A DNA stretch of 64,000 nucleotides from a virus. Taxonomy: Duplodnaviria; Caudoviricetes. Below the pieces are notes generated by a model. It was not told where the DNA came from, searched no databases, and was given only the letters and a program-made list of their open reading frames with translations. Location of the stretch: the IMG/VR virus record IMGVR_UViG_3300034410_000463, positions 19,334 through 83,333 of that record; one strand, given 5' to 3'. Position numbers and translations under genes: made by a program. Of the stretch, positions 4,978-51,979 are shown piece after piece (position 1 is the first letter of the stretch; the number at the start of each line of letters is the position of its first letter).

Positions 4978-4978
4978 A

Positions 4979-7066: not shown

Positions 7067-7563
7067 TGAGCGACGAAAAGATTTCTTCTGCACTTGGCAT
7101 CAGGCCAATGTCAGAAATTGATGAAGATGAAAAGCAAGAGCAAGTACCTACAGTAATACCTGCTGTTAAAAACGAGGTTGCTGAAGCATCACCTCAATTG
7201 CCTGCTGTTTTATCTGACGTTGAAAAAGAGAATTTAGAAGACATTGAACATGTCCGTCAAAACGTCGCTGAAGTTATAGAAACTGGTAAAAGTGCTATGG
7301 AAGAAATGTTAGAAATAGCCAAGCAATCAGAACAGCCTCGAGCATTTGAAGTAGTTTCTACTTTAATGAAAACATTATTAGATGCTAACAAAGATTACGC
7401 TGATATATCTACTAAAAAGAAATTTGCTAAAGAAGAAATAAACGAGCCTAAAGAAGCAGCGGGCGGTAACACAGTTACTAATAATAATCTCATTGTATCG
7501 ACATCAGATCTTCTCAGAATGTTAAAAGATCAGGAAGATGATAAAGGTGTAATTGATGGGTGA
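7066..7563 (+). CDS. gp16: Terminase small subunit gp16
   Basis: AKQSEQPRAFEVVSTL, VTNNNLIVSTSDLL; directly upstream of gp17. Confidence 0.88.
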   Translation: MSDEKISSALGIRPMSEIDEDEKQEQVPTVIPAVKNEVAEASPQLPAVLSDVEKENLEDIEHVRQNVAEVIETGKSAMEEMLEIAKQSEQPRAFEVVSTLMKTLLDANKDYADISTKKKFAKEEINEPKEAAGGNTVTNNNLIVSTSDLLRMLKDQEDDKGVIDG

Positions 7564-9151: not shown

Positions 9152-9159
9152 AAAGCTCA

Positions 9160-9190
9160 TATAAATAGCAAATCGAGTAATTTATAAATA
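9160..9190 (+). promoter_or_regulatory. Two T4-type late promoters
   Basis: TATAAATA at 9160-9167 and 9183-9190, upstream of gp18. Confidence 0.75.
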
Positions 9191-9247
9191 GAAACAGTTA
9201 TAACAATTAAATTAAAACGCGTTTCTAATTAAATAAAGGAGAAAAAC

Positions 9248-11206: not shown

Positions 11207-11233
11207 TAAATATACTTAAAAGGAGAAGAACAC

Positions 11234-11767
11234 ATGGCATTTAACATTAATCAGTTCAAATCAGAACTAGTTGGTGGCGGTGCACGTCCTACGCTCTTCC
11301 AATGTCAGATCACCAACCCGGTTAATCAGACTGCCGACATTAAAGTACCATTTATGGTACGGGCAGCTGGAATCCCTGAGTCTTCAGTAGGGCAGTATTC
11401 TGTTCCCTACTTTGGACGACAGGTTAAATATGCCGGTGATAGGATATTCGCGGACTGGACAGTTACCGTAATCAATGACGAAGACTTTGCTATCAGAAAC
11501 GCAATGGAAGAGTGGATGAACTTCATCAACTCTCATGATTCAAATTCAAGAGGCTTGCCTCAACAGTACAAATCTAACGGTCAAATTACTCAGTTTAGTA
11601 AAGATGGTTCAGTATTACGTACTTACATTTTTGAAGGCATGTTCCCAATTGCTATTGATGGCATTCAAATGGATTGGTCCGCTACTGATTCTATTGAAGA
11701 ATTTAGTATTACATTCCAGTACGATTTATGGAGAGTTGAAGGTAATACTGGCGTACCAACTACATAA
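11234..11767 (+). CDS. gp19: Tail tube protein gp19
   Basis: GGGARPTLF, PYFGRQVKYAGDR, WTVTVINDEDF, IEEFSITFQY. Confidence 0.95.
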   Translation: MAFNINQFKSELVGGGARPTLFQCQITNPVNQTADIKVPFMVRAAGIPESSVGQYSVPYFGRQVKYAGDRIFADWTVTVINDEDFAIRNAMEEWMNFINSHDSNSRGLPQQYKSNGQITQFSKDGSVLRTYIFEGMFPIAIDGIQMDWSATDSIEEFSITFQYDLWRVEGNTGVPTT

Positions 11768-11794
11768 TTTATTATATAATGTGAGGATTGAAAA

Positions 11795-13354
11795 TTGAAA
11801 TTATTTGGGTTTGAAATAAACAGAGAAAGCGAAGAGATCGTAGCTCCGGTCTCTTTCGCTGAACCATTGAACGATGACGGTGCTATTACCGTTGGAAACG
11901 CAGTGGGTGGATTCTATAGTACTATTCTAGATTTAGAAGGTACTGCTAAGACTGAGTCCGAGCTAGTGACAAAATATCGTGGTCTCGCCATGAATCCCGA
12001 AATTACTCAAGCGGTGGATGAAATCGTTAATGAAGCAATTTCGGTCGATTTAGCAGACAAAGTTGTAGATATTGTTATGGACGACTCAGATCTTCCAGAT
12101 AAGGTCAAGGATAGAGTTTCAGAAACTTTCCAAGAAGTACTTACTCTATTGGATTTTTCTAATACTGGCTACGATACTTTTTCAAAGTTTTATATTGATG
12201 GTAGAGTTAATTATCACTGTATCATTAATGAAGAAGATCTTAAAACCGGTATTCAAGAGCTACGTTATGTTGATCCACGTAAATTAAAACTTATTCGTGA
12301 AATGGATAAGAAAAATATGGATAAGCATTCTGGAGTTCCAGTTAAAAAGATTAAATCTGAGTACTACATGTATTCAGAAAATGGTTTTGGTAGCGAAAAA
12401 GGATCAGGAACTTCTGGTTCTCAGGGATATAAAATTGCAAAAGACTCTATTGCCCGTATTACATCGGGTCAAATGAGTGAAAATAATGCTCTTGTTTTAT
12501 CACATTTGCATGCAGCAATTAAGCCAATTAACCAGTTAAGGATGCTCGAAGATGCGACAATCATCTATACTTTAACAAGAGCACCTGAAAGAAGAATTTT
12601 TTATATTGATGTCGGTAACTTACCTAAGTCTAAAGCCGAGCAATATTTAAGAGATATGATGGTTCGTCACAAGAACAAGCTACAGTATAATTCATCTACT
12701 GGTGAAATTACAGATGCTCGTAAGATGATGACTATGACAGAAGATTTTTGGTTCCCTCGCCGTGGTGGTGAGAGAACTACTGAAGTGGATACATTAGCAG
12801 GTGGTAATGCTCAAGGTTTAACTAATGATGAAAACCTACAGTACTTCCAGCGTAAACTATATAAATCGCTTAAGGTTCCACTATCACGTTTAGAACCAGA
12901 AACAATGTACTCTTTTGGTCGTGTTTCTGAAATTACTCGAGATGAACTTAAGTTTAGCAAATTTATTCAACGTTTAAGAAATCGCTTTTCATCTTTGTTT
13001 ACTCAAATTTTAGAAAAGCAGCTTATTCTTAAAGGTATTATGACACCAGAAGAATTTGCAGAATTAAAACCAGCTTTAAGATACGACTTTATTAAAGACA
13101 ATTATTTTACTGAATTGAAAGAAGCTGAAATTGCACGTGAAAGATTAACAACTCTAAGAGAAGTTGACGAGCATATCGGCACATATTATTCAAGAGAATG
13201 GGTTCGTAAAAATGTTCTTCGTATGACTGATGATGATATTAAAGATATGGAGAAACAAATCGCCGCAGAAGCTGGAACTGAAGATGCTCCAGATGGTGGC
13301 GAAGATGATGAAGATACGAATCGCGAAGAGGATTCAAAAGTCGTTAATGGATAA
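11795..13354 (+). CDS. gp20: Portal vertex protein gp20
   Basis: RAPERRIFYIDVGNLP, KAEQYL, EDFWFPRRGG, ITRDELKF; TTG start with GAGGA RBS. Confidence 0.97.
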   Translation: MKLFGFEINRESEEIVAPVSFAEPLNDDGAITVGNAVGGFYSTILDLEGTAKTESELVTKYRGLAMNPEITQAVDEIVNEAISVDLADKVVDIVMDDSDLPDKVKDRVSETFQEVLTLLDFSNTGYDTFSKFYIDGRVNYHCIINEEDLKTGIQELRYVDPRKLKLIREMDKKNMDKHSGVPVKKIKSEYYMYSENGFGSEKGSGTSGSQGYKIAKDSIARITSGQMSENNALVLSHLHAAIKPINQLRMLEDATIIYTLTRAPERRIFYIDVGNLPKSKAEQYLRDMMVRHKNKLQYNSSTGEITDARKMMTMTEDFWFPRRGGERTTEVDTLAGGNAQGLTNDENLQYFQRKLYKSLKVPLSRLEPETMYSFGRVSEITRDELKFSKFIQRLRNRFSSLFTQILEKQLILKGIMTPEEFAELKPALRYDFIKDNYFTELKEAEIARERLTTLREVDEHIGTYYSREWVRKNVLRMTDDDIKDMEKQIAAEAGTEDAPDGGEDDEDTNREEDSKVVNG

Positions 13355-13390
13355 ATATAATCAAATCAAAGTAAATCTAGGAGATTTCAA

Positions 13391-14857
13391 ATGAAGTCCT
13401 TTAAACAAATAATTTCGGAAGTAGCACAGCCAAAAGAAAAAGGTGCTCACGAAGAGCAAGCCTTTAAGGATCAACATACTTACGAAGTAAAGCCACACCC
13501 AGTTGCGTTGGATACTCAATTCACTGGTGATATTCAAAAGCCTCAGGCCATGCGTAAAGCTGACCAGAAAGGCGATGCTAATTACGACAAAGCATATTCA
13601 AAAGGTATCTTTGAAGAAGAAGCTAATCTTCAAGAAGATCCTTCTCAAGAAATTCCAATGATGGAAAAGCAATTAGACTTTATCAGTCAAGCTGTTTCAG
13701 AAATTAAAGATTCTCTTGGTAACGGTGATCCAAAAGAATGGTATCAAAACAAATTAACTGCAGCTTATGAAGCGGTTAAAACTTTGCATGCTAACCTTCA
13801 AACCGAAGCATTATCAGGTGGTCAAAAAGAACTTGATACTGATTCAGATGGCGACATCGATGCTAAGGATCTTGCAGCACTCAGAGCTCGTAAAAAAAAG
13901 AAAACAAATGAAGAATTAGATGAAGATATGAATAAGGTTCACACCGTTGATATCGATCACGACGGTAGTAAAGATGCTAATGCAAAGAAGCACAATATTA
14001 CTTTAAAGAAAACCGGCGATTATTCTCATAATGCTACTGGTAAGAAAAAAGATCTTCACAAGTATTTAGCTAAGCACTATGATTCACACGATGATGCTAA
14101 AGAGCTACATCCAGAATTGCATGAAGCAGACAAGCTAAGTGTTAAAAAAGCAATTGGTATTGCAACTGATAAGAGATACAAAGGTGGTAACATGTCTGGC
14201 GCTGTAAAGGCAATGGATAAAATGAAGCCCGGTATTTCAGATCACCCACAAGTTAGAGCTGTTCTTAAAAGAGTAAATGAATCGCTTTTTGAACTTGACG
14301 AAGATATGAATAAGGTTCACACCGTTGATATCGATCATACAGGCGATCATGATGCAAATGCTAAAAAGCATAACATTACTTTAAAGAAATCTAAAGGTAC
14401 TGCCGATTCACACAGTGCTACTGGTAAGAAAAAAGATCTTCAAAAGTATTTAGCAAAACATTACGATTCACACGATGATGCAAAAGATATTCATCCTGAA
14501 GTACATGAAACAACTATGTCTGCTACTAAAAAGCCAGTAACAATGACTGGTCCAGATGGTAAGACTCGTACAGTTATGAAAACTACTAAAGTAAAAAATA
14601 CTGACGATCACGGACAAGATAAAATCAAAACAAACGAATCTATTATCCAAGAGTTAGAAGAAAATATCAAGTTTAAAGTTGGTATGCTGAGACTTAAAAA
14701 TGGTAAATCAGTAGTTCTTAAGAAGCAAGACTCAGACTTATTAACTCAAATGTTTAAAGATCTTTCACCTACAAACCGTAGAAAACTTGGTGCAGTAGCT
14801 ATGAAAGACGAAGCTGGATTTAAAGAAATCCTTGGATTTGCAAGAGAAGCGTTGTAA
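13391..14857 (+). CDS. Prohead core/internal protein; putative gp21-processed polyprotein with duplicated module
   Basis: Lies between gp20 and gp21; N-terminus MKSFKQIISE resembles T4 capsid-targeting sequences; many xxE junctions; internal repeat. Confidence 0.65.
   Translation: MKSFKQIISEVAQPKEKGAHEEQAFKDQHTYEVKPHPVALDTQFTGDIQKPQAMRKADQKGDANYDKAYSKGIFEEEANLQEDPSQEIPMMEKQLDFISQAVSEIKDSLGNGDPKEWYQNKLTAAYEAVKTLHANLQTEALSGGQKELDTDSDGDIDAKDLAALRARKKKKTNEELDEDMNKVHTVDIDHDGSKDANAKKHNITLKKTGDYSHNATGKKKDLHKYLAKHYDSHDDAKELHPELHEADKLSVKKAIGIATDKRYKGGNMSGAVKAMDKMKPGISDHPQVRAVLKRVNESLFELDEDMNKVHTVDIDHTGDHDANAKKHNITLKKSKGTADSHSATGKKKDLQKYLAKHYDSHDDAKDIHPEVHETTMSATKKPVTMTGPDGKTRTVMKTTKVKNTDDHGQDKIKTNESIIQELEENIKFKVGMLRLKNGKSVVLKKQDSDLLTQMFKDLSPTNRRKLGAVAMKDEAGFKEILGFAREAL
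13913..14509 (+). repeat. Two copies of a ~70-aa coding module (13913-14125, 14291-14509)
   Basis: Identical run gaagatatgaataaggttcacaccgttgatatcgatca; both copies encode KKHNITLKK and ATGKKKDL.KYLAKHYDSHDDAK. Confidence 0.92.
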
Positions 14858-14859
14858 AA

Positions 14860-15102
14860 ATGGCCTGGGTAGAAGTTCCTGGATCATACCACGCTGTTAG
14901 CAATACTCATATTTGGGAGTATGATAACGCCGCCACAGCAGCAAGTACATATGTAGATGCTAATGGAACAACGGCAAATGGCATAAGAAGTTTTACACCA
15001 CCGGGTGGAACCGCACAAGAAATATACGTAAAGGTGCGTAAAACAGGTGAAACCGCAGAACGCGGCGAGTTAAGTAAAACATATTATGACGCAAGAGTAT
15101 AA
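14860..15102 (+). CDS. Hypothetical protein
   Basis: 80-aa ORF between core protein and gp21. Confidence 0.55.
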   Translation: MAWVEVPGSYHAVSNTHIWEYDNAATAASTYVDANGTTANGIRSFTPPGGTAQEIYVKVRKTGETAERGELSKTYYDARV

Positions 15103-15109
15103 AAAGAAT

Positions 15110-15117
15110 TATAAATA
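15110..15117 (+). promoter_or_regulatory. T4-type late promoter
   Basis: TATAAATA upstream of gp21. Confidence 0.7.
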
Positions 15118-15148
15118 TAACTGAATAGTATAAAGATAGAGGCACAAA

Positions 15149-15841
15149 ATGAAACTTATTACAGAAGTTGTAGAAGAATGTAATGTTATTACAGATCTCA
15201 ATGAAGAAACTGGCGAAAAGTCGTACTTCATTGAAGGTATCTTCATGCAAGGAGATATCAAGAATCGTAACGGGCGCATTTATCCTTCTGCGGTTCTAGA
15301 AAAAGAAATGAATCGTTATAATAAAGATTTCATTGGTACTAAAAGAGCACTTGGTGAGTTGGGACACCCCGATGGACCAGCTATTAACGGAGATAGAGTA
15401 TCACACCTTATCACCGAAATGTCAAAAGATGGCTCTAATTTTACCGGCAAAGCAAAGATTTTAGGTACTCCGATGGGTAACATCGTCAAAACATTAATGG
15501 ACGAAGGTGTTCTTATTGGTGTATCTACAAGAGGACTTGGTTCTGTTAAGCAAGGCAAAGACGGAATCATGGAAGTACAAAACGATTTCCATTTAGCTAC
15601 TGTTGATATTGTAACAGATCCATCTGGACCGAATTGTTTCGTAAATGGCATTATGGAAAATGCGGAATATTTCTACGATATTGCTTCAGGTAACTGGCTT
15701 CCTCAGGACGTTTCGGTTGAAGAAGTAATTGAAGAAATCCAGCAAACAGTAGAGAAAGAAGTTAGAAGAACAGTTCGTCGAGTAGATGAAAGCACAGCCG
15801 CTGCGTTATTCGAGCGATTTGTGTCTGGTCTTAGAAAATAA
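15149..15841 (+). CDS. gp21: Prohead protease gp21
   Basis: MKLITE, IEGIFMQG, NRNGRIYP, ALGELGHP, GVSTRG, DIVTDPSGP. Confidence 0.96.
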   Translation: MKLITEVVEECNVITDLNEETGEKSYFIEGIFMQGDIKNRNGRIYPSAVLEKEMNRYNKDFIGTKRALGELGHPDGPAINGDRVSHLITEMSKDGSNFTGKAKILGTPMGNIVKTLMDEGVLIGVSTRGLGSVKQGKDGIMEVQNDFHLATVDIVTDPSGPNCFVNGIMENAEYFYDIASGNWLPQDVSVEEVIEEIQQTVEKEVRRTVRRVDESTAAALFERFVSGLRK

Positions 15842-15899
15842 CTTTTTAATAAATAGTAAACATATAGAATAACCAATTAAGTTAAAAGGAGTAGAACAT

Positions 15900-16880
15900 A
15901 TGTCAAATGAGTTAGACGAAAAGTTCGTTGAGAAATCTGGTGGCGACGTTGTTCCTGCAGCAGAAGTGCAGGATACCGTATCTCCAGAAGGCGGCGAAAT
16001 CAAGAAGAAAAAGGCAGATGTCAAAAAATCAGTAGATCCAAAAGCTGACAAAGTAGACAAAGTCACTCCAGGCCAAGGCGCTGTTGCAGAAGAAGCTGAA
16101 GAAGCTGATGCTGAAGCGGTTGTTGAAGAAGTAGTTGAAATTGAGGAATCAATCCAAGCTATGTTCGAAGGCGTGGACCTCTCAGAAGAATTCAAATCAA
16201 AAGTAACATTAGTCTTTGAAGCAGCTGTTCATGAAGCAGCAACTGCAAAAGCTGAAGTTGTAATTGCAGAGAAAACTGAAGCTCTAGAAGTAGAGATGAA
16301 AGAATCAGTAGATACTGCAGTTGAAAAAATCGTTGAAAATCTTGATTCTTATCTCGACTACGTAGTAGAAGAGTGGATGAAAGAGAACGAGCTTGCTATT
16401 GAAACCGGCGTTAAGGTAGAAATGGCAGAGTCATTAATGACTGGTCTTAAAGGATTATTCGAAGAGCACAACATCGAAGTCGATGATGAAACTATCGACG
16501 TAGTTGCTGGCTTGGAAGAAGAAGTTCAAGAACTTAAGACTACTGCTAATGAAAAGATCAGTGAAAACGTTGAACTACATAAGCAGATTGCATCACTTAA
16601 TGCAGATAGAGTATTTGACGAAATGACCGAAGACTTGACTATCACCCAGCGTGAGAGACTTAAAGTTCTTTCTGAGAAACTCGACGTACAAGATATTGCG
16701 GAATACAAAACCGATCTTTCAACACTTAAGGAATCTTTCTTTGCTAAGAAAGCTACTGTAGTTGAGGAAGTTGAGGAAGAGCAAGAAATCATTACTGAAG
16801 AAACAGCGGTTAAGAGACCAGTCTCTGATCACTCTTCAATTAATGCTCTCGTTGAGTCTCTAAACGCAAGAAACAAATAA
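15900..16880 (+). CDS. gp22: Prohead core scaffold gp22
   Basis: LSEEFKSKVTLVFEAAV, YLDYVVEEWMKEN; synteny. Confidence 0.93.
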   Translation: MSNELDEKFVEKSGGDVVPAAEVQDTVSPEGGEIKKKKADVKKSVDPKADKVDKVTPGQGAVAEEAEEADAEAVVEEVVEIEESIQAMFEGVDLSEEFKSKVTLVFEAAVHEAATAKAEVVIAEKTEALEVEMKESVDTAVEKIVENLDSYLDYVVEEWMKENELAIETGVKVEMAESLMTGLKGLFEEHNIEVDDETIDVVAGLEEEVQELKTTANEKISENVELHKQIASLNADRVFDEMTEDLTITQRERLKVLSEKLDVQDIAEYKTDLSTLKESFFAKKATVVEEVEEEQEIITEETAVKRPVSDHSSINALVESLNARNK

Positions 16881-16896
16881 CCCAAAACAATAATAT

Positions 16897-16904
16897 TATA
16901 AATA
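16897..16904 (+). promoter_or_regulatory. T4-type late promoter
   Basis: TATAAATA upstream of gp23. Confidence 0.75.
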
Positions 16905-16944
16905 GATCCAGATAGAACTTATTTAAACAAGGAGATAGACAATT

Positions 16945-18288
16945 ATGGCACAGTCAAACTATCAAGCTCTTGTGGAGAAGTGGGGCCCCATTTTGGAGCA
17001 CGACTCTTTTTCACCAATTGCAGATCAACACAAGAAATCTGTCACTGCGACAATTCTTGAAAACACAGAAAAGGCTCTCGTAGAATCAGGTGATATCTCT
17101 GCTTCTATGACTGGTCTTCTTAGCGAAACTACAGTAACAGGCGATGGCGGCTTCGGTTCAGCTTCAACTGCTGCTGGTCCAACTGCTGGTTACGATCCAG
17201 TATTAATCTCATTAGTACGTCGTGCAATGCCTAATCTTATGGCATACGACATTGCTGGTGTACAGCCAATGACAGGTCCAACAGGACTTATCTTTGCAAT
17301 GCGTTCAACTTACACTAACCAAGCTGGCGGCGAAGCTTTCTACAACGAAGCTGATACTGACTTCTCTGGTACAGGTGCTCATAGCGCGAAACTAGGCGAA
17401 GGTTCAGAAACTACTGGTGTAGGCCTTGACACTGACGATGCTGAAGCATTGGGAACTCTCCCAATCGTAGGCGGAACCGGTGCTGCTGGTGACCCAGTTG
17501 CTCCAACTACTTCATTCGGCGAAATGGCCTTCTCAATCGAGAAAGTTACGGTTGCTGCGAAGTCAAGAGCTCTGAAAGCTGAATACACTACTGAGCTTGC
17601 TCAGGACCTTAAAGCAGTTCACGGCTTAGATGCTGAAACTGAATTAGCCAACATTCTCCAGTCTGAAATCTTAGTTGAGATCAACAGAGAATTGGTTCGT
17701 ACAATCTACTCAAATGCTGTTGCTGGTGCAACTGCTACCGCCGCTCCGGGTACATTCGACTTAGACGTTGATGCAAACGGTCGTTGGTCAGTAGAGAAGT
17801 TCAAAGGTTTAATGTTCCAAATCGAGCAAGAAGCTAACGCTATTGCAAAAGGAACCAGACGTGGTAAAGGTAACATCGTAATTTGTTCTTCAGACGTAGC
17901 TTCTGCATTGCAAATGGCCGGTGTACTTGATTACACTCCTGCTCTTAACAGCAACGCTCTTTCAGTAGATGATACTGGTAATACTTTTGCTGGTGTACTT
18001 AACGGTCGCTACAAAGTATATATCGATCCATATGCTGGTGCAAACTACCTAGTTGTAGGCTATAAAGGTTCTTCATCTTTCGATGCTGGTATCTTCTATT
18101 GCCCATACGTTCCATTACAAATGGTTCGTGCAGTTGGTGAGAATAGCTTCCAACCGAAAATTGGTTTCAAAACCCGTTACGGTATGGTCTCTAACCCATA
18201 TGCTAAAGGAATCACACAAGGTTCTGGTGCATTGGATGCCAACAGCAACGTATACTACCGTAGAGTTGCAATCGCTAACTTATTCTAA
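16945..18288 (+). CDS. gp23: Major capsid protein gp23
   Basis: LISLVRRAMPNL, VQPMTGPTGLIFAMR, KSRALKAEYT, FYCPYVPL, GFKTRYG. Confidence 0.98.
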   Translation: MAQSNYQALVEKWGPILEHDSFSPIADQHKKSVTATILENTEKALVESGDISASMTGLLSETTVTGDGGFGSASTAAGPTAGYDPVLISLVRRAMPNLMAYDIAGVQPMTGPTGLIFAMRSTYTNQAGGEAFYNEADTDFSGTGAHSAKLGEGSETTGVGLDTDDAEALGTLPIVGGTGAAGDPVAPTTSFGEMAFSIEKVTVAAKSRALKAEYTTELAQDLKAVHGLDAETELANILQSEILVEINRELVRTIYSNAVAGATATAAPGTFDLDVDANGRWSVEKFKGLMFQIEQEANAIAKGTRRGKGNIVICSSDVASALQMAGVLDYTPALNSNALSVDDTGNTFAGVLNGRYKVYIDPYAGANYLVVGYKGSSSFDAGIFYCPYVPLQMVRAVGENSFQPKIGFKTRYGMVSNPYAKGITQGSGALDANSNVYYRRVAIANLF

Positions 18289-19755: not shown

Positions 19756-20181
19756 TTATAGTTCCCCAGCTTCTCTAAGTTGGGCCCTGATTTTCGTTGC
19801 CGAAATTTCGTGAATGTCTGACCCAAGGTCATGTTCTGTAAATGTGTAGCCGACACCGCGACCATAGCTGATATCCACAATATTAGGAACGCAGATAATA
19901 ATATATTCATATCCATTTTCATATCCTTCTTTTCGTAATCCATTCTCGATTGCTTCAACTACTTGAATCTCGCCAAACGGATTATCATCTTGTGTTTGGG
20001 TTCTTCCGCCACCGGCATCTTTGTCAACTATACCGCCTACGTCTCGAACCATTATAGCAACTTGTCCAGTGACTTCTAAGGCACGTTTGAACAGTGCTGT
20101 ATGGCCATCATGCCAAGGTTGCCAACGCCCGAGCATTTGAGCTGTGGGCTTCTGATAATCAAAAAACTCTTTTTCTATCAT
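19756..20181 (-). CDS. HxGH nucleotidyltransferase (cytidylyltransferase/NMNAT superfamily)
   Basis: GRWQPWHDGH and ISATKIR motifs. Confidence 0.8.
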   Translation of the reverse strand: MIEKEFFDYQKPTAQMLGRWQPWHDGHTALFKRALEVTGQVAIMVRDVGGIVDKDAGGGRTQTQDDNPFGEIQVVEAIENGLRKEGYENGYEYIIICVPNIVDISYGRGVGYTFTEHDLGSDIHEISATKIRAQLREAGEL

Positions 20182-20182
20182 T

Positions 20183-20401
20183 TTATCTCCTATTTAAACC
20201 AATTCTAATATACTTATACCACAATCTTTCATGGCCGTAGTACAAAACAAATTTAATAACGAGATCTGCTAGAAATACCATGCCAACCGCTTTCGGTGGT
20301 AAGCCAAAATACCAAGCAATAATTGCTGTGGTTATACTAGCTATTATACGCCATGTTACGGCTTTTGTCAAATGTCGAATCTTACTTACTGACTCTGTCA
20401 T
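20183..20401 (-). CDS. DUF2061 small membrane protein
   Basis: KAVTWRIIAS...KFVLYYGHERLW. Confidence 0.8.
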   Translation of the reverse strand: MTESVSKIRHLTKAVTWRIIASITTAIIAWYFGLPPKAVGMVFLADLVIKFVLYYGHERLWYKYIRIGLNRR

Positions 20402-20850
20402 TTTTCAATGTTCAAAGTAAACGCAAGCTGCGGGTTTCGCTTCATGAACGTGGCGACAACTAGCATTAAAGTTGAGGGTGTATCTTCAAACCATTCGGAT
20501 ACATGATAATCAACTTTTTCTGGTGGCACAAACATTTTATTTGTATCTTCAAATCGGCCTTCTTCTATCGTATCCATCCAAACAGTAAAGTCTGGATCAA
20601 AGGCTTCTCGAGCTGCTTCAGTAGGACATACAAAATCAGTAACAACAATCTTACCTGCTAATGCTGCACCATCACTTAAGTGGCGCATACGATTTGCTTG
20701 TCTCATACGACCTTCAGGACTAAAGTCCCAATCATCGTAATGCTTACGAACTTGATCTGCATTAATATGAACTGCATCAAGAAGTCCAGCCAGTGGTTTT
20801 GCTAAAGTAGTTTTCCCACTACCTGGCAAACCAAAAATCAATATTTTCAC
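20398..20850 (-). CDS. cysC: Adenylylsulfate (APS) kinase-like P-loop kinase
   Basis: GLPGSGKTT, NADQVR, DFSPEGR, DFVCPT; GTG start. Confidence 0.72.
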   Translation of the reverse strand: MKILIFGLPGSGKTTLAKPLAGLLDAVHINADQVRKHYDDWDFSPEGRMRQANRMRHLSDGAALAGKIVVTDFVCPTEAAREAFDPDFTVWMDTIEEGRFEDTNKMFVPPEKVDYHVSEWFEDTPSTLMLVVATFMKRNPQLAFTLNIEK

Positions 20851-34519: not shown

Positions 34520-35476
34520 TTATTTGGTGGCAGCTTTTTCTCTAAGGATTTTAGTCCATAGATTAGAAAAGCTGTCAATGTCATTGGCTACAAGTCCAAA
34601 TTTATCTGATCTTGTAAACCGGTTAAAGAATTGAGGATCGTTCTTTTGAGCTTCCAACACACTCTTAGTAACTGCATATGCAATCGATGCGTGTTTAGTT
34701 GGATCTTCGGTATAGTCATACATAACTGTAGCACTTGCCGCTGTTTCGGCCAAAGCACCATAGTTTGGATGAATACAAATCAATCCAGATCGAATTGCTT
34801 CAATAAGAGCAATACACGACGTTTCTTTCCAAACATTGGGATATAAGAAAATGTGTGATCTATCTAATGCTTCGAGTACTTCTTTATTAGAAACATTACC
34901 ATGATTTGTCATTTTTGGATGATCTTCGATTTGTTTAAAGATCTTAGCATATGGTTCATCTCTTTGAGGCCAACCATAAATGCCGAAAGAAGAATAAACA
35001 TCAAGATGAATGTTATCATATTCTTTTGATAAAGCATCAAATGCTGGTATCAATAGCTCTAAACCACGGTGTGGAGTAGTATGATAAACGAATCGAATTG
35101 TTTGTGTATTCTTTTCTTCTGCTTCATACCGTTTTTCAATAGCATTAGGAATAACCGAACACTTTGAATACGGAATGCCAAAATAAGCAATGTATTGATC
35201 ACGCTGCCATGAGGTCACAAAAACAAAGTGATCGAACTTAGTCCAACCATTATCAACTAAGATTTTGTTTTCAGGATCTTCGGCTAGGTCGTGACAGTAC
35301 AAAATGTTTTTCACATCTTCAGGAATATCCCTAGGACGTGAAAAGTGGATTGCATAACCTTGTAATAATTCAGGTTGAACAGTATCGAGAAGACGCTTGC
35401 GCATCATCTCGGTACCACCTTTTGAATTTTTAGACAGCTCGGTTTCTACAACCTCACCTTTGTAAATCATACTCAT
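34520..35476 (-). CDS. GT-B (GT4-like) glycosyltransferase
   Basis: KGGTE, HTTPHRGL, YPNVWKETSCIALIEA, GALAET. Confidence 0.85.
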   Translation of the reverse strand: MSMIYKGEVVETELSKNSKGGTEMMRKRLLDTVQPELLQGYAIHFSRPRDIPEDVKNILYCHDLAEDPENKILVDNGWTKFDHFVFVTSWQRDQYIAYFGIPYSKCSVIPNAIEKRYEAEEKNTQTIRFVYHTTPHRGLELLIPAFDALSKEYDNIHLDVYSSFGIYGWPQRDEPYAKIFKQIEDHPKMTNHGNVSNKEVLEALDRSHIFLYPNVWKETSCIALIEAIRSGLICIHPNYGALAETAASATVMYDYTEDPTKHASIAYAVTKSVLEAQKNDPQFFNRFTRSDKFGLVANDIDSFSNLWTKILREKAATK

Positions 35477-41414: not shown

Positions 41415-41948
41415 TTACTGCCCGGCTAAATAAGCCATTACTGTTTCTGGAGAAGACTCACCATATGGATCTTCATTTTCCTTAGTGGCCGCTGGCTCCA
41501 CAAACATTTTTTCTACTTCGTTATCGTTAATTACTACGGCAAATCTTTTCGATCTTGAACCAAAGCCAATAACACTAAAATCACCGAGCTGTCCTAGCGC
41601 TTCGGCAAAATACCCATTACCATCTGGGATAACTTTAACTTTCTCAACACCGAGCTTTTCAGCCCAAGCGTTCATTACAAATCCATCGTTTACAGAAGAA
41701 ACATAGATTTCATCAATACCCATCTCTTTAATAGCTTCGTAGTTTTCTTCAAAGCCAGGAAGTTGTTGAGATGAACACGTCGGTGTAAACGCGCCTGGTA
41801 AAGAAAATACAATTGTACGTTTACCACCAAACATTTCAATTGAGTCCATAGGCAACCAACTACCACCAATAGGGCATCCACCATCTTCAGGTTCTACATC
41901 TCCGGTTCTGGCCATAAATGTAATTTGCGGGATCATATCTTTAATCAT
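41415..41948 (-). CDS. Peroxiredoxin (Prx5-type)
   Basis: FSLPGAFTPTCS, SVNDGFVMNAW, PDGNG. Confidence 0.92.
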   Translation of the reverse strand: MIKDMIPQITFMARTGDVEPEDGGCPIGGSWLPMDSIEMFGGKRTIVFSLPGAFTPTCSSQQLPGFEENYEAIKEMGIDEIYVSSVNDGFVMNAWAEKLGVEKVKVIPDGNGYFAEALGQLGDFSVIGFGSRSKRFAVVINDNEVEKMFVEPAATKENEDPYGESSPETVMAYLAGQ

Positions 41949-42658
41949 GTTGTTAACTCCTCAAGTTGTTTCCACGTATCACGCCAATCTTTTACTTGGT
42001 GCGATTTTCCATTTGTGCGTTCTTCTATTGCTTTTGCTATTGACCAATCATTACCTGAAGGAAATATTGAATCACCAAAGAAATGAATCTTTTCTCGATA
42101 GTTTTGAAAGTCTTCAAGTATCTGGCTTTTATCTGAACCAGTGGGGTGAATATCAATACCAGTTTCACCACCAACAGTTGCGGTAATATCCTTATAGTAA
42201 GAATTGATTATGTGAGCAATAGTTTCACGCTCTTTATTTAACGTATCATATTCTACGTACTCTGCACGTTGTTCTTTTGTTGCGTTACGCCCAACAACAG
42301 AAAAGTTCATCATTCCAGGCCGTTCTTCTTTATGGTTACCTGTTCTTACAGGAAATCTACTGGCTTGAAGCCAACCATCAAGAATACGATGCATAGAAGG
42401 AGGAACTTTCCAAGCAGAAGATCGTACTTTTTCTGATCCGGAATATACGTCACTACCAGAGCAGTTGTAAACTTTCTTACAAAGATTATAAGTTGGTTCA
42501 CTAATTTGTTCAATTGTTTTATCTCGATCTGAACCAGTTACGAGGTAAACATCATTTACTAAACAGAAAGTATTAAACCAAGCTTTAAAGTCTAAATCAA
42601 TAATACCTCTACTTGGCGTTAAAGTACCATCTACATCAAATACATATTTTGTGCTCAT
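41945..42658 (-). CDS. HAD-IIB phosphomannomutase-like protein
   Basis: FDVDGTLTPSR, VTGSD, GGETGIDI, DKSQIL, FFGD...GND. Confidence 0.85.
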   Translation of the reverse strand: MSTKYVFDVDGTLTPSRGIIDLDFKAWFNTFCLVNDVYLVTGSDRDKTIEQISEPTYNLCKKVYNCSGSDVYSGSEKVRSSAWKVPPSMHRILDGWLQASRFPVRTGNHKEERPGMMNFSVVGRNATKEQRAEYVEYDTLNKERETIAHIINSYYKDITATVGGETGIDIHPTGSDKSQILEDFQNYREKIHFFGDSIFPSGNDWSIAKAIEERTNGKSHQVKDWRDTWKQLEELTT

Positions 42659-46661: not shown

Positions 46662-46690
46662 ATTATAAACCAACCAGATACCAATGTCAA
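46662..46690 (-). promoter_or_regulatory. sigma70 early promoter
   Basis: TTGACA-N17-TATAAT. Confidence 0.82.
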
Positions 46691-46693: not shown

Positions 46694-46927
46694 TTATTTT
46701 ATATTATTTAGTAAGTTTTTAAGGCGCCAGAGGAGGGTTTTTGTCTCTACAGTGTCAGTCCAGCAGTCCTCTTGTGATGTAATATCATGTAGAATCTCCT
46801 TAAGCATGGTGTTCTCCTGCCTCAGAGCGTCATTATCTCTGAGAGCAGACTGTTTAGCCTTCTTATGCTCATCTATTTCTAGATTAAGATTTTGTACTGT
46901 TCTTTCGTTTATTTTTAGCTTTGGCAT
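46694..46927 (-). CDS. Small coiled-coil protein
   Basis: MPKLKINE...; overlaps the end of the upstream gene. Confidence 0.45.
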   Translation of the reverse strand: MPKLKINERTVQNLNLEIDEHKKAKQSALRDNDALRQENTMLKEILHDITSQEDCWTDTVETKTLLWRLKNLLNNIK

Positions 46928-48482
46928 TTTTCTTTCCGTATTTTTCAAAGAATGCGTAATCACTCACATATGCGCGTTTAATAAATTCTATTTGTTCCTC
47001 AGTAAAATCATCTACTGTAATCTCTTTATTAGTTACGTTATGTGCTACACCAATATCAAAGTACTTATTAACATCTTCACGTTTTACTACTTCAATGTCT
47101 GTAAAGTTTTCAGTATCGACAAATCTACACTGGGGGTGGAAATGATGTACTTGATGTCCACCAGTAATCTTGTTTAGATTACGGAAGAATAAATCAATCT
47201 TTTCTTCTTTTGAAAGCGTATCTAAATCTTTATCAAAGCTTTTAAAAATGTCTTTACCGTAATCGTAATATCTTTGCTTTTTAGTAATATAAACATTAAT
47301 CAAAGATATGAACCTATCAACTGGATCAGTAAAGATCATGATAGGCTTTTTATTCTCTTCAATGAACCGCTTATACAAACGAGTTCCACGCATTACTTGC
47401 TTACGACCAGGAAAGCTTTCCTTAATTGTTACTGAACAAGACCGCGGTACTTCAAACCAAAGCTTTTCATTATCATCTTCAAGATCATACATCAATGGCC
47501 AATCTAACTTTTGGCACCAATAACAATTGCAATCATTGAATGCGTACGTTGAATTAATATCTACTTCAGGCAATAAGAAGTCTTTAACAAACGGCGTTTC
47601 AAAAATCAGTTCGGGTAGTTCAGAATGAGGATACCTTTTAAGAATATGATCAGTATTAGAATCAGGTGCAACATTACCTTCAACTGGTTCGGTAGTATCT
47701 ACGAATTGTTTATAATCTGCGTATCCACCTTCACTATGCCATTTAAAGCTATCGAATGCGTGAGCAAACGAATCAGCTTTTGTTTGACGTTGTTGAGTTG
47801 ATCCCATCCAAGCAAAGTGCCAACCCATATCTTCTTGAATAACTCCGTCGTGAGTTGGAAATCTTACCGGCAGAGAAATGTTACCACAACGTAGATTACT
47901 TAACTTAAATGTTTGAGCTTGTTCTTTTGTCGCAAAGAACATAGCACGTTTCCATATAACTGGTTCACCATTACGATGATGGATACGTAGATCAGCTCGA
48001 CCTTGTAAATATACAAGTGGAATTTTAACAATTAAGTTTGGGTGATTGTATGTCTGTTTTGCAAGCCAATGAATGTGTTTAGGATTAATGACTTCGTCAG
48101 CATCACCATAAATGAATACGTCGCGCTGATCAAATTCAGTCATACCCATCATAACAGCATCTTTTTGTAGACGTTCTCTTACTCGTGCATATAATGATTC
48201 TCTATTATTAGCGTTTACACCAGCATTCTTTCTATCAATATCAAGTATTTCAAGATCTTCCGTTTCTGGAATATCATGTTCTATGTAGATAATCTTTTCA
48301 ATAGGAAGGCCAAGCTTACGAGCAACTTCAGGAAACTTACGTTCTACTGGTTTACCAGCATGAGTCTTATTTGACTCAACAATAATAAACTTATCTACAT
48401 GATCTTTTAATAGGTTTACACGTAAATAAAGTAACTCTTCTCCGTAGGGAGCGAACCAGGGAAAACAATCTACTACTTTCAT
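46884..48482 (-). CDS. GT17 (MGAT3-like) glycosyltransferase fused to a sulfotransferase-like domain
   Basis: VDCF, LLYLRV, VDKFIIVES, GDADE, GWHFAW; C-terminal FEVPRSCSVTI, FTDPVDRFIS, HFHPQ. Confidence 0.75.
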   Translation of the reverse strand: MKVVDCFPWFAPYGEELLYLRVNLLKDHVDKFIIVESNKTHAGKPVERKFPEVARKLGLPIEKIIYIEHDIPETEDLEILDIDRKNAGVNANNRESLYARVRERLQKDAVMMGMTEFDQRDVFIYGDADEVINPKHIHWLAKQTYNHPNLIVKIPLVYLQGRADLRIHHRNGEPVIWKRAMFFATKEQAQTFKLSNLRCGNISLPVRFPTHDGVIQEDMGWHFAWMGSTQQRQTKADSFAHAFDSFKWHSEGGYADYKQFVDTTEPVEGNVAPDSNTDHILKRYPHSELPELIFETPFVKDFLLPEVDINSTYAFNDCNCYWCQKLDWPLMYDLEDDNEKLWFEVPRSCSVTIKESFPGRKQVMRGTRLYKRFIEENKKPIMIFTDPVDRFISLINVYITKKQRYYDYGKDIFKSFDKDLDTLSKEEKIDLFFRNLNKITGGHQVHHFHPQCRFVDTENFTDIEVVKREDVNKYFDIGVAHNVTNKEITVDDFTEEQIEFIKRAYVSDYAFFEKYGKKNAKAKNKRKNSTKS

Positions 48483-48483
48483 T

Positions 48484-49071
48484 CTACTTCCTTCTTTCCA
48501 ATATGGTTAAACCATTACAATTAGTCTTATGCTTCTTAAACTGCCAGTGAGGATTTGCAATTACAAAGTCAATTACTGCTGGAAGTAAACCTTGACCAGC
48601 GATTGCTTTGCGGTCAGGATTTGCAGCCCAATCAACTTGCTCATCTCTTACGCCATATGTATGTGTATCATGGAATGCAAGATATTTACGAGCAGCATTA
48701 CCGTGCAGCTTAAGTTCTTCTCTTAATTGCTGTTGGCTATGCCATGTATCAATAAAGATTAGATCGGTTGGTTCAATAAGAATATTAAGCGTGTTTGCTT
48801 TTGTATATTCTACATCTTTACCAACCTTCTTAGCAATCTTAAATAGATCATTCAATGGATTATGAATTTCAAGATCATATGCTCTTAAAGTTACTTGAGC
48901 TTTTAAGAATGCTTTTGTGCTTGCTCCAAACCTACTACCAAACTCAGTGACATGTGTACAATCTTCGGCTAATGTTAATAGATCATGCAAATGTTCATCA
49001 ATATCAGTTTTAGTATTCTTTTCTTGCTGATAATGCCTTTCTATCAGCTCATTCCATTCACTCATATTCAT
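48484..49071 (-). CDS. Class I SAM-dependent methyltransferase
   Basis: VTEFGSRFGAST, DLIFIDTWH, LAFHDT, NCNGLTIL. Confidence 0.85.
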   Translation of the reverse strand: MNMSEWNELIERHYQQEKNTKTDIDEHLHDLLTLAEDCTHVTEFGSRFGASTKAFLKAQVTLRAYDLEIHNPLNDLFKIAKKVGKDVEYTKANTLNILIEPTDLIFIDTWHSQQQLREELKLHGNAARKYLAFHDTHTYGVRDEQVDWAANPDRKAIAGQGLLPAVIDFVIANPHWQFKKHKTNCNGLTILERRK

Positions 49072-50093
49072 ACGTCAAGCCACCTTGTATTTTCTAATGT
49101 CCAAGTTACAACTTCAGCGATACGTTGATCAACTGGTTTCGGGGTCCATCCCATCTGTGCCATTCTGTCACCAGAGAGAGCATAGCGCAAGTCATGACCA
49201 GGGCGAGAGCTGTGGAAATCCATGAATTCATATTTTAACTCCTTGCCTTGTGCGTCGGCAATCATTTGTGCGAGTTGTAAGTTATTCAATTCAGTCGCAC
49301 CGCAGATATTGAACTTAGGACATTTAACGCCTGAATTATTTTCAACGTTAAGAGTATCAGTATGTTCTAATAGGAACAGTGTAGCATCCGCAACATCTTC
49401 AGCATGAATATAATGTCGTGATCCTGGAATTGTTTTTGTTTCATCACTATGAATCGTTACTGTACCACCGTCGCGTACATTACGAATAGTCATAGGAATA
49501 AACTTTTCAGGATGTTGACGTTCACCAAACACGTTCATAGTATGCGTAATATAAATTGGCATATCATATGTGTTTTGATAAGCTACACAAAGTTCTTCAC
49601 CACCTGCTTTTGAAGCAGAATATGGATTAGTAGAATTATAACGATCATACTCGTCGTACTTAACATCATCAGGAGCAGGACCAAAGACTTCATCTGTTGA
49701 GAAGTATAGGAACCTTTCCAAGTTAGGTTGTTTACGAGCAAGTTCTAGAATATTACACGTACCAACGACGTTATCCATTACAAATTCCATTGGATGGTCA
49801 ATTGAACGATCTACGTGAGAGCCTGCTGCCAAATGAGCAACAATATCAACGTCACCAATATCTGCTAAGAGCATTGGATTAAATTCTGCTTTTAAATCGT
49901 GAAAGATTGTACGAAGACGTGAACGTTCTTCAGGGGTGCGATCTTGTAAAAGATCATGTAATCTGTTTAGGTTACCACTATAATCTAAACGATCTACAGT
50001 AACGATATCCCAATCAGTTCTTTTGAGTACCTGGTTGATTAAGTGATGGGCAATAAAGCCACCGCCACCAGTGATAAGTATTTTCTTAGCCAT
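49068..50093 (-). CDS. NDP-sugar 4,6-dehydratase (RmlB-like)
   Basis: ITGGGGFI, DRLDYSG, HLAAGSHVDRSI, STDEVFG, YSASKA, SRPGHDLRY; ATG 50093. Confidence 0.9.
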   Translation of the reverse strand: MAKKILITGGGGFIAHHLINQVLKRTDWDIVTVDRLDYSGNLNRLHDLLQDRTPEERSRLRTIFHDLKAEFNPMLLADIGDVDIVAHLAAGSHVDRSIDHPMEFVMDNVVGTCNILELARKQPNLERFLYFSTDEVFGPAPDDVKYDEYDRYNSTNPYSASKAGGEELCVAYQNTYDMPIYITHTMNVFGERQHPEKFIPMTIRNVRDGGTVTIHSDETKTIPGSRHYIHAEDVADATLFLLEHTDTLNVENNSGVKCPKFNICGATELNNLQLAQMIADAQGKELKYEFMDFHSSRPGHDLRYALSGDRMAQMGWTPKPVDQRIAEVVTWTLENTRWLDV

Positions 50094-50127
50094 TATATCT
50101 CCGTCATCAATAACATTGTAAAGTAGT

Positions 50128-50153
50128 CTCAATAGCCCCGAAGAGCTATTGAG
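50128..50153 (-). other. 11-bp leader stem-loop with cUUCGg loop, no U-tract
   Basis: CTCAATAGCTC-TTCG-GGGCTATTGAG, between late promoter and RBS. Confidence 0.75.
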
Positions 50154-50165
50154 TGTTGTTACGTT

Positions 50166-50173
50166 TATTTATA
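50166..50173 (-). promoter_or_regulatory. T4-type late promoter for the glycan operon
   Basis: TATAAATA just after the porin stop codon. Confidence 0.65.
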
Positions 50174-50175
50174 AT

Positions 50176-51132
50176 CTAAAACAAGTATTCGATTGTAGCC
50201 TTAAAGCTGTTATCAAACTTTCTATTTCCGTATGGTCCTTCCATCGCTTTATTTTGATGGTAGTATAATCCATATCTCATTGGTCCTTTTGGATCTGGTG
50301 TATATAAAGCACCATAGTAATTAAACGTCAAGCCAACATCGTCATCTTCAACTCTGTGTGCTGTAAGCATTACTTCTTTACTATGAATATACATTATACC
50401 ATAATCTTTACGAATGTTTCCACCATCATCAAATTGTTCATATCCAATCGATACAGGAATCCTGAATGGGAAAAGAGATAAACCAGCTGAATAACCAACC
50501 TGTTTGTCTTTACCATTAGTATCAATCTGCATGTAAGATAGATCTAAAATAAATGCACGAACTGTAGCACCAGCATAAGTAGTTTCTGTCTCTGGTTCAT
50601 AACCAACAACACCACCAAATGGTAGGCCACCACGTTTCATGCGATATTCATTAAATTTAAACTCATTATTATTTTGCCAATTACCAAACGTAACGACAAC
50701 TTTTTCTTTATGGTCAATACGAGAGTTTGGTTCGATAACAATTACTGGTGCTCCAATTTTAGATGTTTTTGCAAAACCTAAACGTTGAGCATCTGTTTCA
50801 CCAATATAAACTCTTGTGTTTGTTCCTTTAATACCAAAGCCCATTTGTTTCTCTAGGACTGAGTTATCTTTTGTACGATCTAACATATAGGTAGTATCGT
50901 ATCTTGCTCCTGCTCCAACCCAATCAATAGGGCCGTGATCATTTAGTTTCTTTTGAAAGCCCGCGAATACTTCACCACGTGTATCAATATCGCCTTCTGG
51001 CCATTCGTCATCAATATATACTTCTAATTCACCATTAATATAAAAACCAGTTTCTTCTTCTTTTACTTCTTCAGCAAAAGCTGTTGTCGCCATAAGCGTC
51101 ATGCACAATAGTGCGCTATTTAAAAATTTCAT
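50176..51132 (-). CDS. Outer-membrane beta-barrel porin-like protein
   Basis: Signal peptide ending ATTAFA; amphipathic strands; C-terminal FKATIEYLF. Confidence 0.75.
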   Translation of the reverse strand: MKFLNSALLCMTLMATTAFAEEVKEEETGFYINGELEVYIDDEWPEGDIDTRGEVFAGFQKKLNDHGPIDWVGAGARYDTTYMLDRTKDNSVLEKQMGFGIKGTNTRVYIGETDAQRLGFAKTSKIGAPVIVIEPNSRIDHKEKVVVTFGNWQNNNEFKFNEYRMKRGGLPFGGVVGYEPETETTYAGATVRAFILDLSYMQIDTNGKDKQVGYSAGLSLFPFRIPVSIGYEQFDDGGNIRKDYGIMYIHSKEVMLTAHRVEDDDVGLTFNYYGALYTPDPKGPMRYGLYYHQNKAMEGPYGNRKFDNSFKATIEYLF

Positions 51133-51612: not shown

Positions 51613-51628
51613 TGTTTTTCCTTTATTA

Positions 51629-51979
51629 TTATAGTGCTGTAACTTTATCCATGTCAAAATTAATACTAATTCCGCATCCACATTCTGACGCGACGTTAGG
51701 ATTTCTCAATTCAAAATGTTGATTAAAAACATTTCTTATATAGTCAATTTCAGTTCCAGCCAAATATGCTTGCGCATCTTTATGTACGGCCAATATACCA
51801 GTATCACATTGAATTAAAAAGTAATCTGTATCTTTGACTTCTTCTTTTTGTGCAACCTTCCAATCGTATTCGAATCCGCCACAACCTCCACCTTTAATAT
51901 CTAAAGTAACGGCGTAGCAATCATGTTCTTGGCAGAGTTCGCTTACTTTAAGGTTAGCGTTTCCTGTAACAGTAATCAT
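51629..51979 (-). CDS. iscA: HesB/IscA A-type Fe-S carrier
   Basis: [28 protein letters not shown]. Confidence 0.92.

Follow-up and report, generated by a model that had tools for sequence, protein, structure and literature searches.

Glycan-building gene clusters of giant viruses are among the closest described parallels to the locus studied here. The fibril-glycosylation clusters of the Megavirinae (Moumouvirus australiensis ma457-ma468, Cotonvirus) contain 4,6-dehydratases, glycosyltransferases, a sulfotransferase and a SAT/APS kinase, and the sulfated virion glycans of giant viruses are likewise a proposal that is unverified (PMC10117803). For phage sulfotransferases the biological function is unclear (PMC10580990). 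Here we characterize a cassette at 46884-50173 (minus strand) of a 64,000-nt stretch of viral DNA (IMG/VR record IMGVR_UViG_3300034410_000463, positions 19,334 to 83,333; hereafter the window), in which genes for a dehydratase, a methyltransferase-like protein and a fusion of a GT17 glycosyltransferase with a sulfotransferase-fold domain follow one another. The window corresponds to G000:C116:19321-83320, that is, to part of a 91.8-kb contig (C116) in a bin of 3.6 Mb and 274 contigs. We tentatively read the cassette as a conserved transcription unit for glycan tailoring in a lineage of T4-like marine myophages that is abundant and uncultured.

Like the Megavirinae clusters, the cassette combines a 4,6-dehydratase with a glycosyltransferase and a putative sulfotransferase, and the structural neighbours of the latter, the C-terminal domain of the fusion (C-domain), include Megaviridae sulfotransferase and GT25-fused proteins. 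In contrast to these giant viruses of eukaryotes, which have a bifunctional SAT/APS kinase and complete sugar pathways, no ATP sulfurylase was found in the phage, its sugar route is incomplete and its sulfotransferase domain is fused to GT17. A soluble viral protein that joins a glycosyltransferase to a sugar-decorating enzyme is also known from chlorovirus PBCV-1: A064R consists of two rhamnosyltransferase domains and a methyltransferase domain, and the cytoplasm is where it acts on the glycan of the capsid. There, however, the decorating enzyme is a methyltransferase, the host is a eukaryote and the capsid glycan has been solved experimentally. Among phages, Freeman et al. are said to have shown in 2023 that mycobacteriophage-encoded glycosyltransferases O-glycosylate capsid and tail-tube proteins, and we know of no other phage virion glycosylation shown by experiment. 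Those phages are siphoviruses of Actinobacteria with glycosyltransferase genes beside the structural genes and no sulfation, whereas the cassette described here lies outside the structural operon. The best viral structural matches of the C-domain (BFVD, Foldseek E 2.7e-6 to 6e-4) are P-SSM7 E3SP23, ACG-2014f, S-T4, S-SCSM1 and Roseobacter phage SIO1 gp5.1; the sulfotransferases of the cultured T4-like cyanophages and of SIO1 are single-domain proteins, unlike the fused domain in the window. An initial annotation of this DNA had called such a system uncharacterised in tailed phages, which is fair with regard to experiments but overlooks the sulfotransferase genes annotated in cultured T4-like cyanophages. 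To our knowledge function has been shown for none of the annotated phage sulfotransferases.

The cassette and the region in front of it comprise the following features:
50166-50173, minus strand: T4-type late-promoter-like motif TATAAATA, an exact match directly 3' of the stop codon of a porin-like gene
50128-50153, minus strand: leader hairpin with an 11-bp stem and a C(UUCG)G tetraloop (minimum free energy of the leader -18.3 kcal/mol, z = -3.7)
50094-50116, minus strand: conserved leader and ribosome-binding region, ATGTTATTGATGA-GGAG-ATATA followed by ATG, unique in the window
49068-50093, minus strand: nucleoside diphosphate (NDP)-hexose 4,6-dehydratase, an RmlB-like extended short-chain dehydrogenase/reductase, P0003, 341 amino acids (aa), Pfam Epimerase 7e-50 and GDP_Man_Dehyd 4e-47
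48484-49071, minus strand: class-I S-adenosylmethionine-dependent O-methyltransferase-like protein, P0002, 195 aa, assigned by fold only
47565-48482, minus strand: GT17 glycosyltransferase domain (Pfam PF04724), aa 1-306 of the fusion protein P0001 (532 aa)
46923-47558, minus strand: sulfotransferase-fold domain, aa 309-520 of P0001, closest to Sulfotransfer_2 by fold, motifs and the matches of its relatives
46694-46927, minus strand: small coiled-coil-like open reading frame (ORF), 77 aa, ATG at 46927, which overlaps the fusion gene at its end, closes the unit and is kept in most relatives at 29-73% identity

The promoter motif, leader hairpin and three tightly coupled genes that the initial annotation placed in this interval are all present on the minus strand. 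The stop codon of the dehydratase gene overlaps the start codon of the methyltransferase gene as ATGA, and a single nucleotide separates the methyltransferase stop codon from the start of the fusion gene. We assign the dehydratase start to the ATG at 50093 and not to the TTG at 50132 because GGAG precedes this ATG. None of the three proteins P0001, P0002 and P0003 contains a hydrophobic segment (maximum KD19 at most 1.32).

We found relatives of the cassette in 62 IMG/VR loci, about 55 of which carry the full fusion, with the fusion ORF intact in every one of these. The gene order is kept: nrdB, aminotransferase, DUF454, (porin-like), dehydratase, methyltransferase, GT17-sulfotransferase, small ORF and hydrolase, the porin-like gene lying directly upstream of the cassette in some relatives only. 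Identity to the window amounts to 68–96% for the dehydratase, 51–88% for the methyltransferase and 51–87% for the two fusion domains. Rather than a hypervariable island, the cassette forms a fixed part of the syntenic core, and its enzyme families together with the synteny in the ~55 loci bear out the view that it is a conserved cassette for building and decorating a glycan. Variants of this arrangement exist as well: four loci (L058-L061) encode the GT17 domain without the sulfotransferase domain, two of them (L060 and L061) carry a 2-oxoglutarate (2OG)-Fe(II) oxygenase gene (PF13640, 1e-19; L060:4681-5445) between dehydratase and methyltransferase, and L028 lacks the methyltransferase gene in its cassette. 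The oxygenase may provide an alternative decoration or a protein-hydroxylation step. A link to collagen hydroxylation was considered and left without support, with the oxygenase present in the cassettes of two relatives, none on this contig and collagen-like genes in 2 of 5 related fragments. Downstream of the cassette in another relative (L012:8906-11435) lie three inserted genes that look heme-pathway-like by eye (a uroporphyrinogen decarboxylase-like N-terminus and its neighbours), in keeping with the ALAS-like aminotransferase encoded on the upstream side of the window's cassette.

Contig C116 belongs to a T4-like myovirus. Its plus-strand arm within the window (1-18288) encodes a neck protein, the prohead protease, a scaffold protein and the gp23 capsid protein, and the minus-strand arm encodes RNase H, DNA ligase, SHMT, nrdA/B, td, frd, PhoH and a collagen-repeat protein; a homolog of T4 DsbA is also present. 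The cassette lies between nrdB and ligase in this replication and nucleotide-metabolism arm, the structural operon being elsewhere. The gp23 protein shares at most 65% identity with any phage record, Sinorhizobium phiM12-like phages coming first, followed by cyanophages and by OM43 and SAR11 myophages. A megablast search of the locus against 50,697 phage records gave no DNA match and no cultured relative, although nearly identical records may be missing from this set. The bin itself (contigs C123, C235, C79, C259, C160, C225, C183, C102, C78 and others) is mixed, with at least seven distinct capsid genes of T4-like type, and host assignment or phage-bacterium association from the bin is therefore unreliable. 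Two more copies of the same glycan cassette were found in the bin, on C183 (84–96% identity) and C102 (55–85%).

The N-terminal half of the fusion protein matches GT17 (PF04724) with 28.9 bits for the whole protein and 30.3 bits for the domain alone, at a cut-off of 26. Standalone homologs of this domain match the family in 18 of 18 cases (best 7e-15). The DxDE motif (D127-x-D129-E130) is invariant in these 18 homologs and in all 37 related proteins; the GWHFxWxG motif is likewise invariant. A profile search of solved structures yielded no GT17 relative. The domain is predicted to be an inverting GT-A glycosyltransferase with an intact DxD motif. The activity of MGAT3 is the beta-1,4-transfer of N-acetylglucosamine to a mannose acceptor.

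The C-domain is very probably a sulfotransferase by fold and homology; its catalytic competence is graded lower. Its AF2 model (pLDDT 87.8) was compared with 48,161 PDB representatives, where ranks 1–17 are all occupied by sulfotransferases (Z 7.7–4.0) and the first other fold follows at Z 3.8. The best structure is the heparan sulfate (HS) 2-O-sulfotransferase 3f5f with an rmsd of 4.1 over 171 residues at 13% identity. Four of nine standalone C-domain homologs match PF03567 (best 1.1e-7), and two related fusions show colinear matches to this family below threshold. In the 37 distinct proteins of at least 500 aa, P-R-S-C-S-V-T-x-K occurs in 30 and DPxxRFx[ST] in 32; R82 is invariant in the family. 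Taken with the HHF motif, the PSB-like loop and DPxxRFxS are found in 30–34 of the 37 proteins, are near-invariant across 34 fusion variants of 51–84% identity and are kept in the standalone homologs too. By analogy, the PRSCSVT loop would correspond to the 5'-phosphosulfate-binding (PSB) loop and DPxxRFxS to the 3'-phosphate-binding (3'-PB) contacts to 3'-phosphoadenosine 5'-phosphosulfate (PAPS). The phage domain thereby resembles HS 2-O-sulfotransferase (2-OST; 3f5f/4ndz, Sulfotransfer_2), with which it shares a PSB loop, the 3'-PB RxxS motif and a His pair; this His pair is catalytic in 2-OST. It differs from this eukaryotic Golgi enzyme by a conserved extra CxCxxC at the N-terminus, in addition to the low identity and to an exchange in the PSB loop that is discussed below.

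Both halves of the fusion also occur on their own: a HMMER search retrieved many standalone N-halves (~300–320 aa) and C-halves (~200–245 aa) plus many other fusions. Searching the 50,697 phage records with tblastn, we obtained one match to the N-domain, in a 642-kb uncultured phage, and found the GT17 fusion in no isolate. The same search with the C-domain gave nothing at E <=1e-3, so its likeness to phage sulfotransferases is at the level of the fold only. PHROGs and NCBIfam contained no match to the fusion, and an hhalign comparison of the C-domain family with the phage's own Sulfotransfer_2 protein (see below) gave a probability of 1.2%. Close relatives of the C-domain are essentially limited to viral contigs. 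A motif scan of 185,579 species genomes returned a single locus. It lies on a 10-kb contig in a Saprospiraceae metagenome-assembled genome and is most likely another mis-binned phage; the cellular context therefore gave no functional clue.

The dehydratase has an intact TDE/YxxxK active site, its translation showing GGGGFIA (GxxGxxG), STDE and YSASK (YxxxK). In the PDB, its ten highest-ranking sequence matches are without exception dTDP-glucose 4,6-dehydratases (RmlB), down to 1.6e-46, and RmlB is by far its best NCBIfam family, the next being LegB with 100 bits. The assignment of the methyltransferase comes from its structure. The AF2 model of P0002 (pLDDT 90.9) matches class-I O-methyltransferases with a Foldseek probability of 1.00, the best match being MeT1 of Mycobacterium hassiacum (6g80, 6.2e-8), which we take to be a sugar methyltransferase, followed by cation-dependent O-methyltransferases. 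At least 500 PDB matches were obtained at E <=1e-3, and among the matches listed nearly all are methyltransferases, chiefly O-methyltransferases. By sequence, P0002 reaches 17.6 bits for Methyltransf_24 (PF13578), below the gathering cut-off of 26.3, and has no NCBIfam or PHROG match; one homolog (P0261) carries PF13578. Homologs of P0002 numbered 318 in marine metagenomes, on contigs of up to 227 kb. Sequence and profile searches of the PDB with P0002, the GT17 domain and the C-domain returned noise, or a marginal match to a 3-O-sulfotransferase at E 1.2. The enzyme identities proposed initially are supported by Pfam for the dehydratase and GT17, and through fold and relatives, with no Pfam match of their own, for the methyltransferase and the sulfotransferase.

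In order to assess the late-promoter-like motif, we counted it across the window and followed it through the relatives. The window contains 13 copies of TATAAATA against 7.7 expected, a mild excess; each copy is on the strand that is coding at its position, and the majority are intergenic. Four of them are placed ~40 nt before start codons, namely those of gp23, the prohead protease and two other genes of the plus-strand structural arm. In front of the dehydratase, ATAAATA is found within 130 nt of the start codon in 31 of 32 distinct relatives, compared with 3.8% of background windows of 130 nt, and its conservation is independent of whether the upstream gene is porin-like, DUF454 or another. 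The gene-neighbourhood survey suggested by the initial annotation returned both a fixed order in related viral loci and this motif upstream. The motif lies at about -40 in relatives without the hairpin and at -62 to -90 in relatives with it. A hairpin (dG -8 or lower) occupies the same place in 18 of the 32 relatives with several unrelated stem sequences and is missing in the remainder, and is therefore facultative. The ~25-nt leader is nearly invariant in the relatives (L009-L061) irrespective of the upstream gene and exceeds the flanking coding sequence in conservation. The conserved parts of the upstream region are the putative promoter motif and this leader, which may serve as a translational operator or protein-binding site. 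We rejected a conserved mini-ORF in the leader, as the frame varies among the relatives, one of which is a base shorter. A further TATAAATA in the window (31703-31620, minus strand) is followed by a strong hairpin and a T-run before the next gene, a promoter-then-terminator-like order as at the cassette.

A second cassette of similar design lies beyond the window on the same contig:
L072:4930-6988, corresponding to G000:C116 ~87930-89990 (L072 being C116:83000-91772), minus strand: twin cassette of three overlapping genes

Its first gene encodes a glycosyltransferase-like protein of 216 aa and its third a GT25-like protein of 227 aa, both recognized by eye. The second is a canonical Sulfotransfer_2 gene (47.6 bits) with PKTACSS and RDPFDR motifs. 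Upstream we found TATAAATA and a GGTAG-TC(UUCG)GG-CTACC hairpin that has a T-run, and the start codon stands in the GGAGATATAATG context already seen at the dehydratase. Two glycosyltransferase-sulfotransferase pairings of common regulatory design are therefore encoded by this phage. Standalone Sulfotransfer_2 genes were also present in three related records.

Other promoters and a membrane-protein gene surround the cassette:
51628-51657, minus strand: perfect sigma-70 promoter (12/12) ahead of the DUF454 gene and then the porin-like gene, a possible source of early read-through
50176-51132, minus strand: porin-like protein, 318 aa, with an N-terminus resembling a signal peptide, an aromatic terminal residue and a match to OMP_b-brl below threshold (23.3 bits, cut-off 28.7)
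46662-46690, minus strand: perfect sigma-70 promoter TTGACA-17-TATAAT opening the next unit (cell-wall hydrolase) and marking the 3' boundary of the cassette

A third perfect sigma-70 promoter was observed at 44835-44807 (minus strand), and a site at 56765-56737 (minus strand) scores 11/12. Three perfect 12/12 TTGACA-N17/18-TATAAT promoters on the coding strand are thus found within 13 kb, with the glycan cassette between two of them, and these predicted promoters split the minus-strand arm into early-type units. The T tail of the hairpin is weak in this phage, and transcription from the promoter at 51657-51628 could enter the cassette via the porin-like gene.

As further context of the cassette, the window contains several genes outside it:
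20398-20850, minus strand: P-loop kinase, P0273, 150 aa, resembling the N-terminal part of APS kinase (AAA_33 34.1 bits, APS_kinase 32.6)
41945-42658, minus strand: PMM-like HAD-IIB phosphomutase (PF03332, 4.5e-26), near the cassette in relative L030
43319-43741, minus strand: TagD/RfaE-like cytidylyl/adenylyl-transferase (PF01467, 5.8e-13; NCBIfam matches under cut-offs)
34520-35476, minus strand: GT4 glycosyltransferase (PF00534, 2e-11)
1240-2028, plus strand: nucleotidyltransferase-cupin fusion adjoining the structural genes (PF01467 2.4e-15 and MannoseP_isomer 6.8e-22)

Pfam confirms the PMM-like, TagD-like, GT4 and nucleotidyltransferase-cupin genes that had been named as context of the cassette, and an FkbM methyltransferase named with them was not upheld, the candidate giving a sub-threshold match of 15 bits. 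The kinase matches APS_kinase (PF01583, cut-off 21.1) over model positions 5–91 of 152 only, with AAA_33 scoring higher, and reaches 27.6 bits for NCBIfam apsK at a cut-off of 138.7. Its best PDB match is the APS kinase 2yvu (4.5e-5, residues 3–82), and APS-kinase-like motifs past the P-loop can be recognized by eye. It belongs to three coupled genes (19756-20850, minus strand) encoding the P-loop kinase, a 72-aa hydrophobic protein and a 141-aa HxGH nucleotidyltransferase, which are kept together on C123 and C235. We rejected the 141-aa protein as an ATP sulfurylase: its GRWQPWHDGH is the NMNAT-type GRxQPxHxGH motif, and only NMNAT-type matches around it were obtained (E ~0.8). Of the APS kinase triad proposed earlier, the three coupled genes stand; the kinase itself is a weak N-terminal match and the 141-aa member looks NMNAT-like.

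No ATP sulfurylase or CysD was found on any phage contig of the bin, and no CysD-type match in the whole bin. Considering also the apsK score of the kinase, a self-sufficient phage route to PAPS, as once envisaged, is not borne out. The only ATP sulfurylase in the bin is a bacterial 570-aa Sat-CysC (APS kinase) fusion (G000:C134:62926-64053; L001:1420-3132, minus strand), which was seen on 468 contigs of up to 628 kb, and the PAPS/APS reductase family (PF01507) has no match anywhere in the bin. If the bin is complete, this combination suggests that PAPS would be made there for sulfation and not for assimilation.

Based on these data the cassette probably makes a sugar decoration that bears methyl and sulfate groups, and we propose a scheme for its action. 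Late in infection, the dehydratase would convert a host- or phage-made NDP-hexose to NDP-4-keto-6-deoxyhexose, from which 6-deoxy sugars derive. A sugar would be transferred by the GT17 domain to an acceptor in the cytoplasm, and the fused C-domain would sulfate the transferred sugar or its neighbour, using PAPS that comes from the host or is made from host adenosine 5'-phosphosulfate (APS). The fusion implies that both domains act consecutively on one acceptor. The methyltransferase would O-methylate the glycan. The acceptor, which is the least certain step, is slightly more likely to be one of the structural proteins of the phage, which are concurrently put together in the cytoplasm (the capsid, a part of the tail or the collagen-like fibre), than the host envelope. 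It is possible, if doubtful, that this lineage coats its own particle, likely on the collagen-like fibre or capsid, with a sulfated, O-methylated 6-deoxyhexose glycan made late by two co-regulated cassettes, with the sulfate donor drawn from host APS/PAPS and possibly supplemented by a phage enzyme resembling a minimal APS kinase.

Several observations weigh against this scheme. Nothing in the sequence points to the acceptor. The dehydratase scores 243.2 bits for RmlB TIGR01181, under the equivalog cut-off of 365.1, and because of this its nucleotide-sugar specificity is not assignable. Neither an epimerase, a reductase or RmlA nor an RmlC-type gene is encoded on the 91.8-kb contig, so that a complete deoxysugar route is not supported. 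Regarding timing, TATAAATA is found before nrdA too, and the cassette is surrounded by nucleotide-metabolism genes of early type, with a perfect sigma-70 promoter 1.5 kb upstream of it; late timing is therefore not proven. What remains of the proposed late expression is the motif shared with the structural genes and its presence in 31 of 32 relatives, whereas late-only expression is not sustained. For the sulfation step, the C-domain (residues 301–532 or 309–532) matches no Pfam family at E <=1, its family aligned with the phage's own Sulfotransfer_2 clade by hhalign with a probability of 6.9% over a C-terminal motif of 27 columns only, the best structural Z, 7.7, is no more than middling, and the canonical Lys of the PSB loop is replaced by Arg. 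These features of the C-domain, the loci L058-L061 that dispense with it and a phage PAPS supply that is not proven would also fit a sulfotransferase-fold relic without sulfate transfer, for example an acceptor- or nucleotide-binding module in a system whose glycan is methylated and unsulfated. We consider such a relic improbable in view of its near-invariant PRSCSVT-K, DPxxRFxS and HHF motifs and of the second, canonical sulfotransferase gene kept in the twin cassette. Moreover, Arg at this loop position is common in bacterial Sulfotransfer_3-type enzymes.

The same enzymology could instead be directed at the host envelope, the acceptor being an O-antigen or capsule unit linked to undecaprenyl, or a different glycan of the cell surface, and the surface would then be remodelled against superinfection or against progeny sticking to debris. 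Envelope remodelling is the usual proposal for the lipopolysaccharide-type genes of marine T4-like cyanophages. It would account for the position of the cassette directly 3' of a porin-like outer-membrane protein and a DUF454 membrane protein under a perfect sigma-70 promoter, from which read-through is possible, for its distance from the structural genes, and for the GT4, TagD-like and PMM-like genes, which are typical envelope-polysaccharide families. A cyanomyovirus with 22 genes for cell-wall synthesis or modification has been read likewise (PMC12801897). It fits less well with the late-type motif directly upstream in nearly all relatives, with three soluble enzymes that have no membrane anchor and with a fixed syntenic core in place of a hypervariable island. 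T4-like phages are lytic, presumably including this one, which also speaks against it. Taken together, an envelope acceptor is possible but on the unlikely side. The surroundings of the cassette, the nucleotide-metabolism arm with nrdAB, td, frd and SHMT, finally raise the question of whether its enzymes modify phage DNA bases, or else a small molecule or metabolite, and viral glycosyltransferases that hypermodify DNA do exist (10.1101/2023.12.21.572611). The paper in question makes no mention of GT17, sulfation or a dehydratase, on which ground DNA glycosylation was rejected as unlikely. A late-type promoter would give the wrong timing for replication-coupled DNA modification, and glycans are the substrates of the relatives in GT17 and Sulfotransfer_2, with heparan-sulfate sulfotransferases as structural neighbours. 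Modification of DNA or of a small molecule is thus very improbable.

A cluster of glycosyltransferase, dehydratase and sulfotransferase is a kind of system already known. What is new is the fusion of GT17 with a sulfotransferase domain, the constant position of this fusion in an uncultured lineage of high abundance, and the common late-promoter/hairpin/leader design of two cassettes. We know of no phage that carries sulfate, and if the particle does bear a sulfated glycan, it would be the first on any bacteriophage particle. The system offers a tractable test case with its small cassette, fixed synteny and many marine metagenome contigs, and a single-protein assay is obvious because glycosyltransferase and sulfotransferase are joined in one polypeptide. 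The design common to both cassettes (promoter motif, UUCG hairpin and leader) furthermore provides a handle on late transcription units in uncultured phages. A negatively charged, methylated glycan on marine virions or infected cells would affect adsorption, grazing and particle aggregation, as well as what happens to carbon and sulfur in viral lysates.

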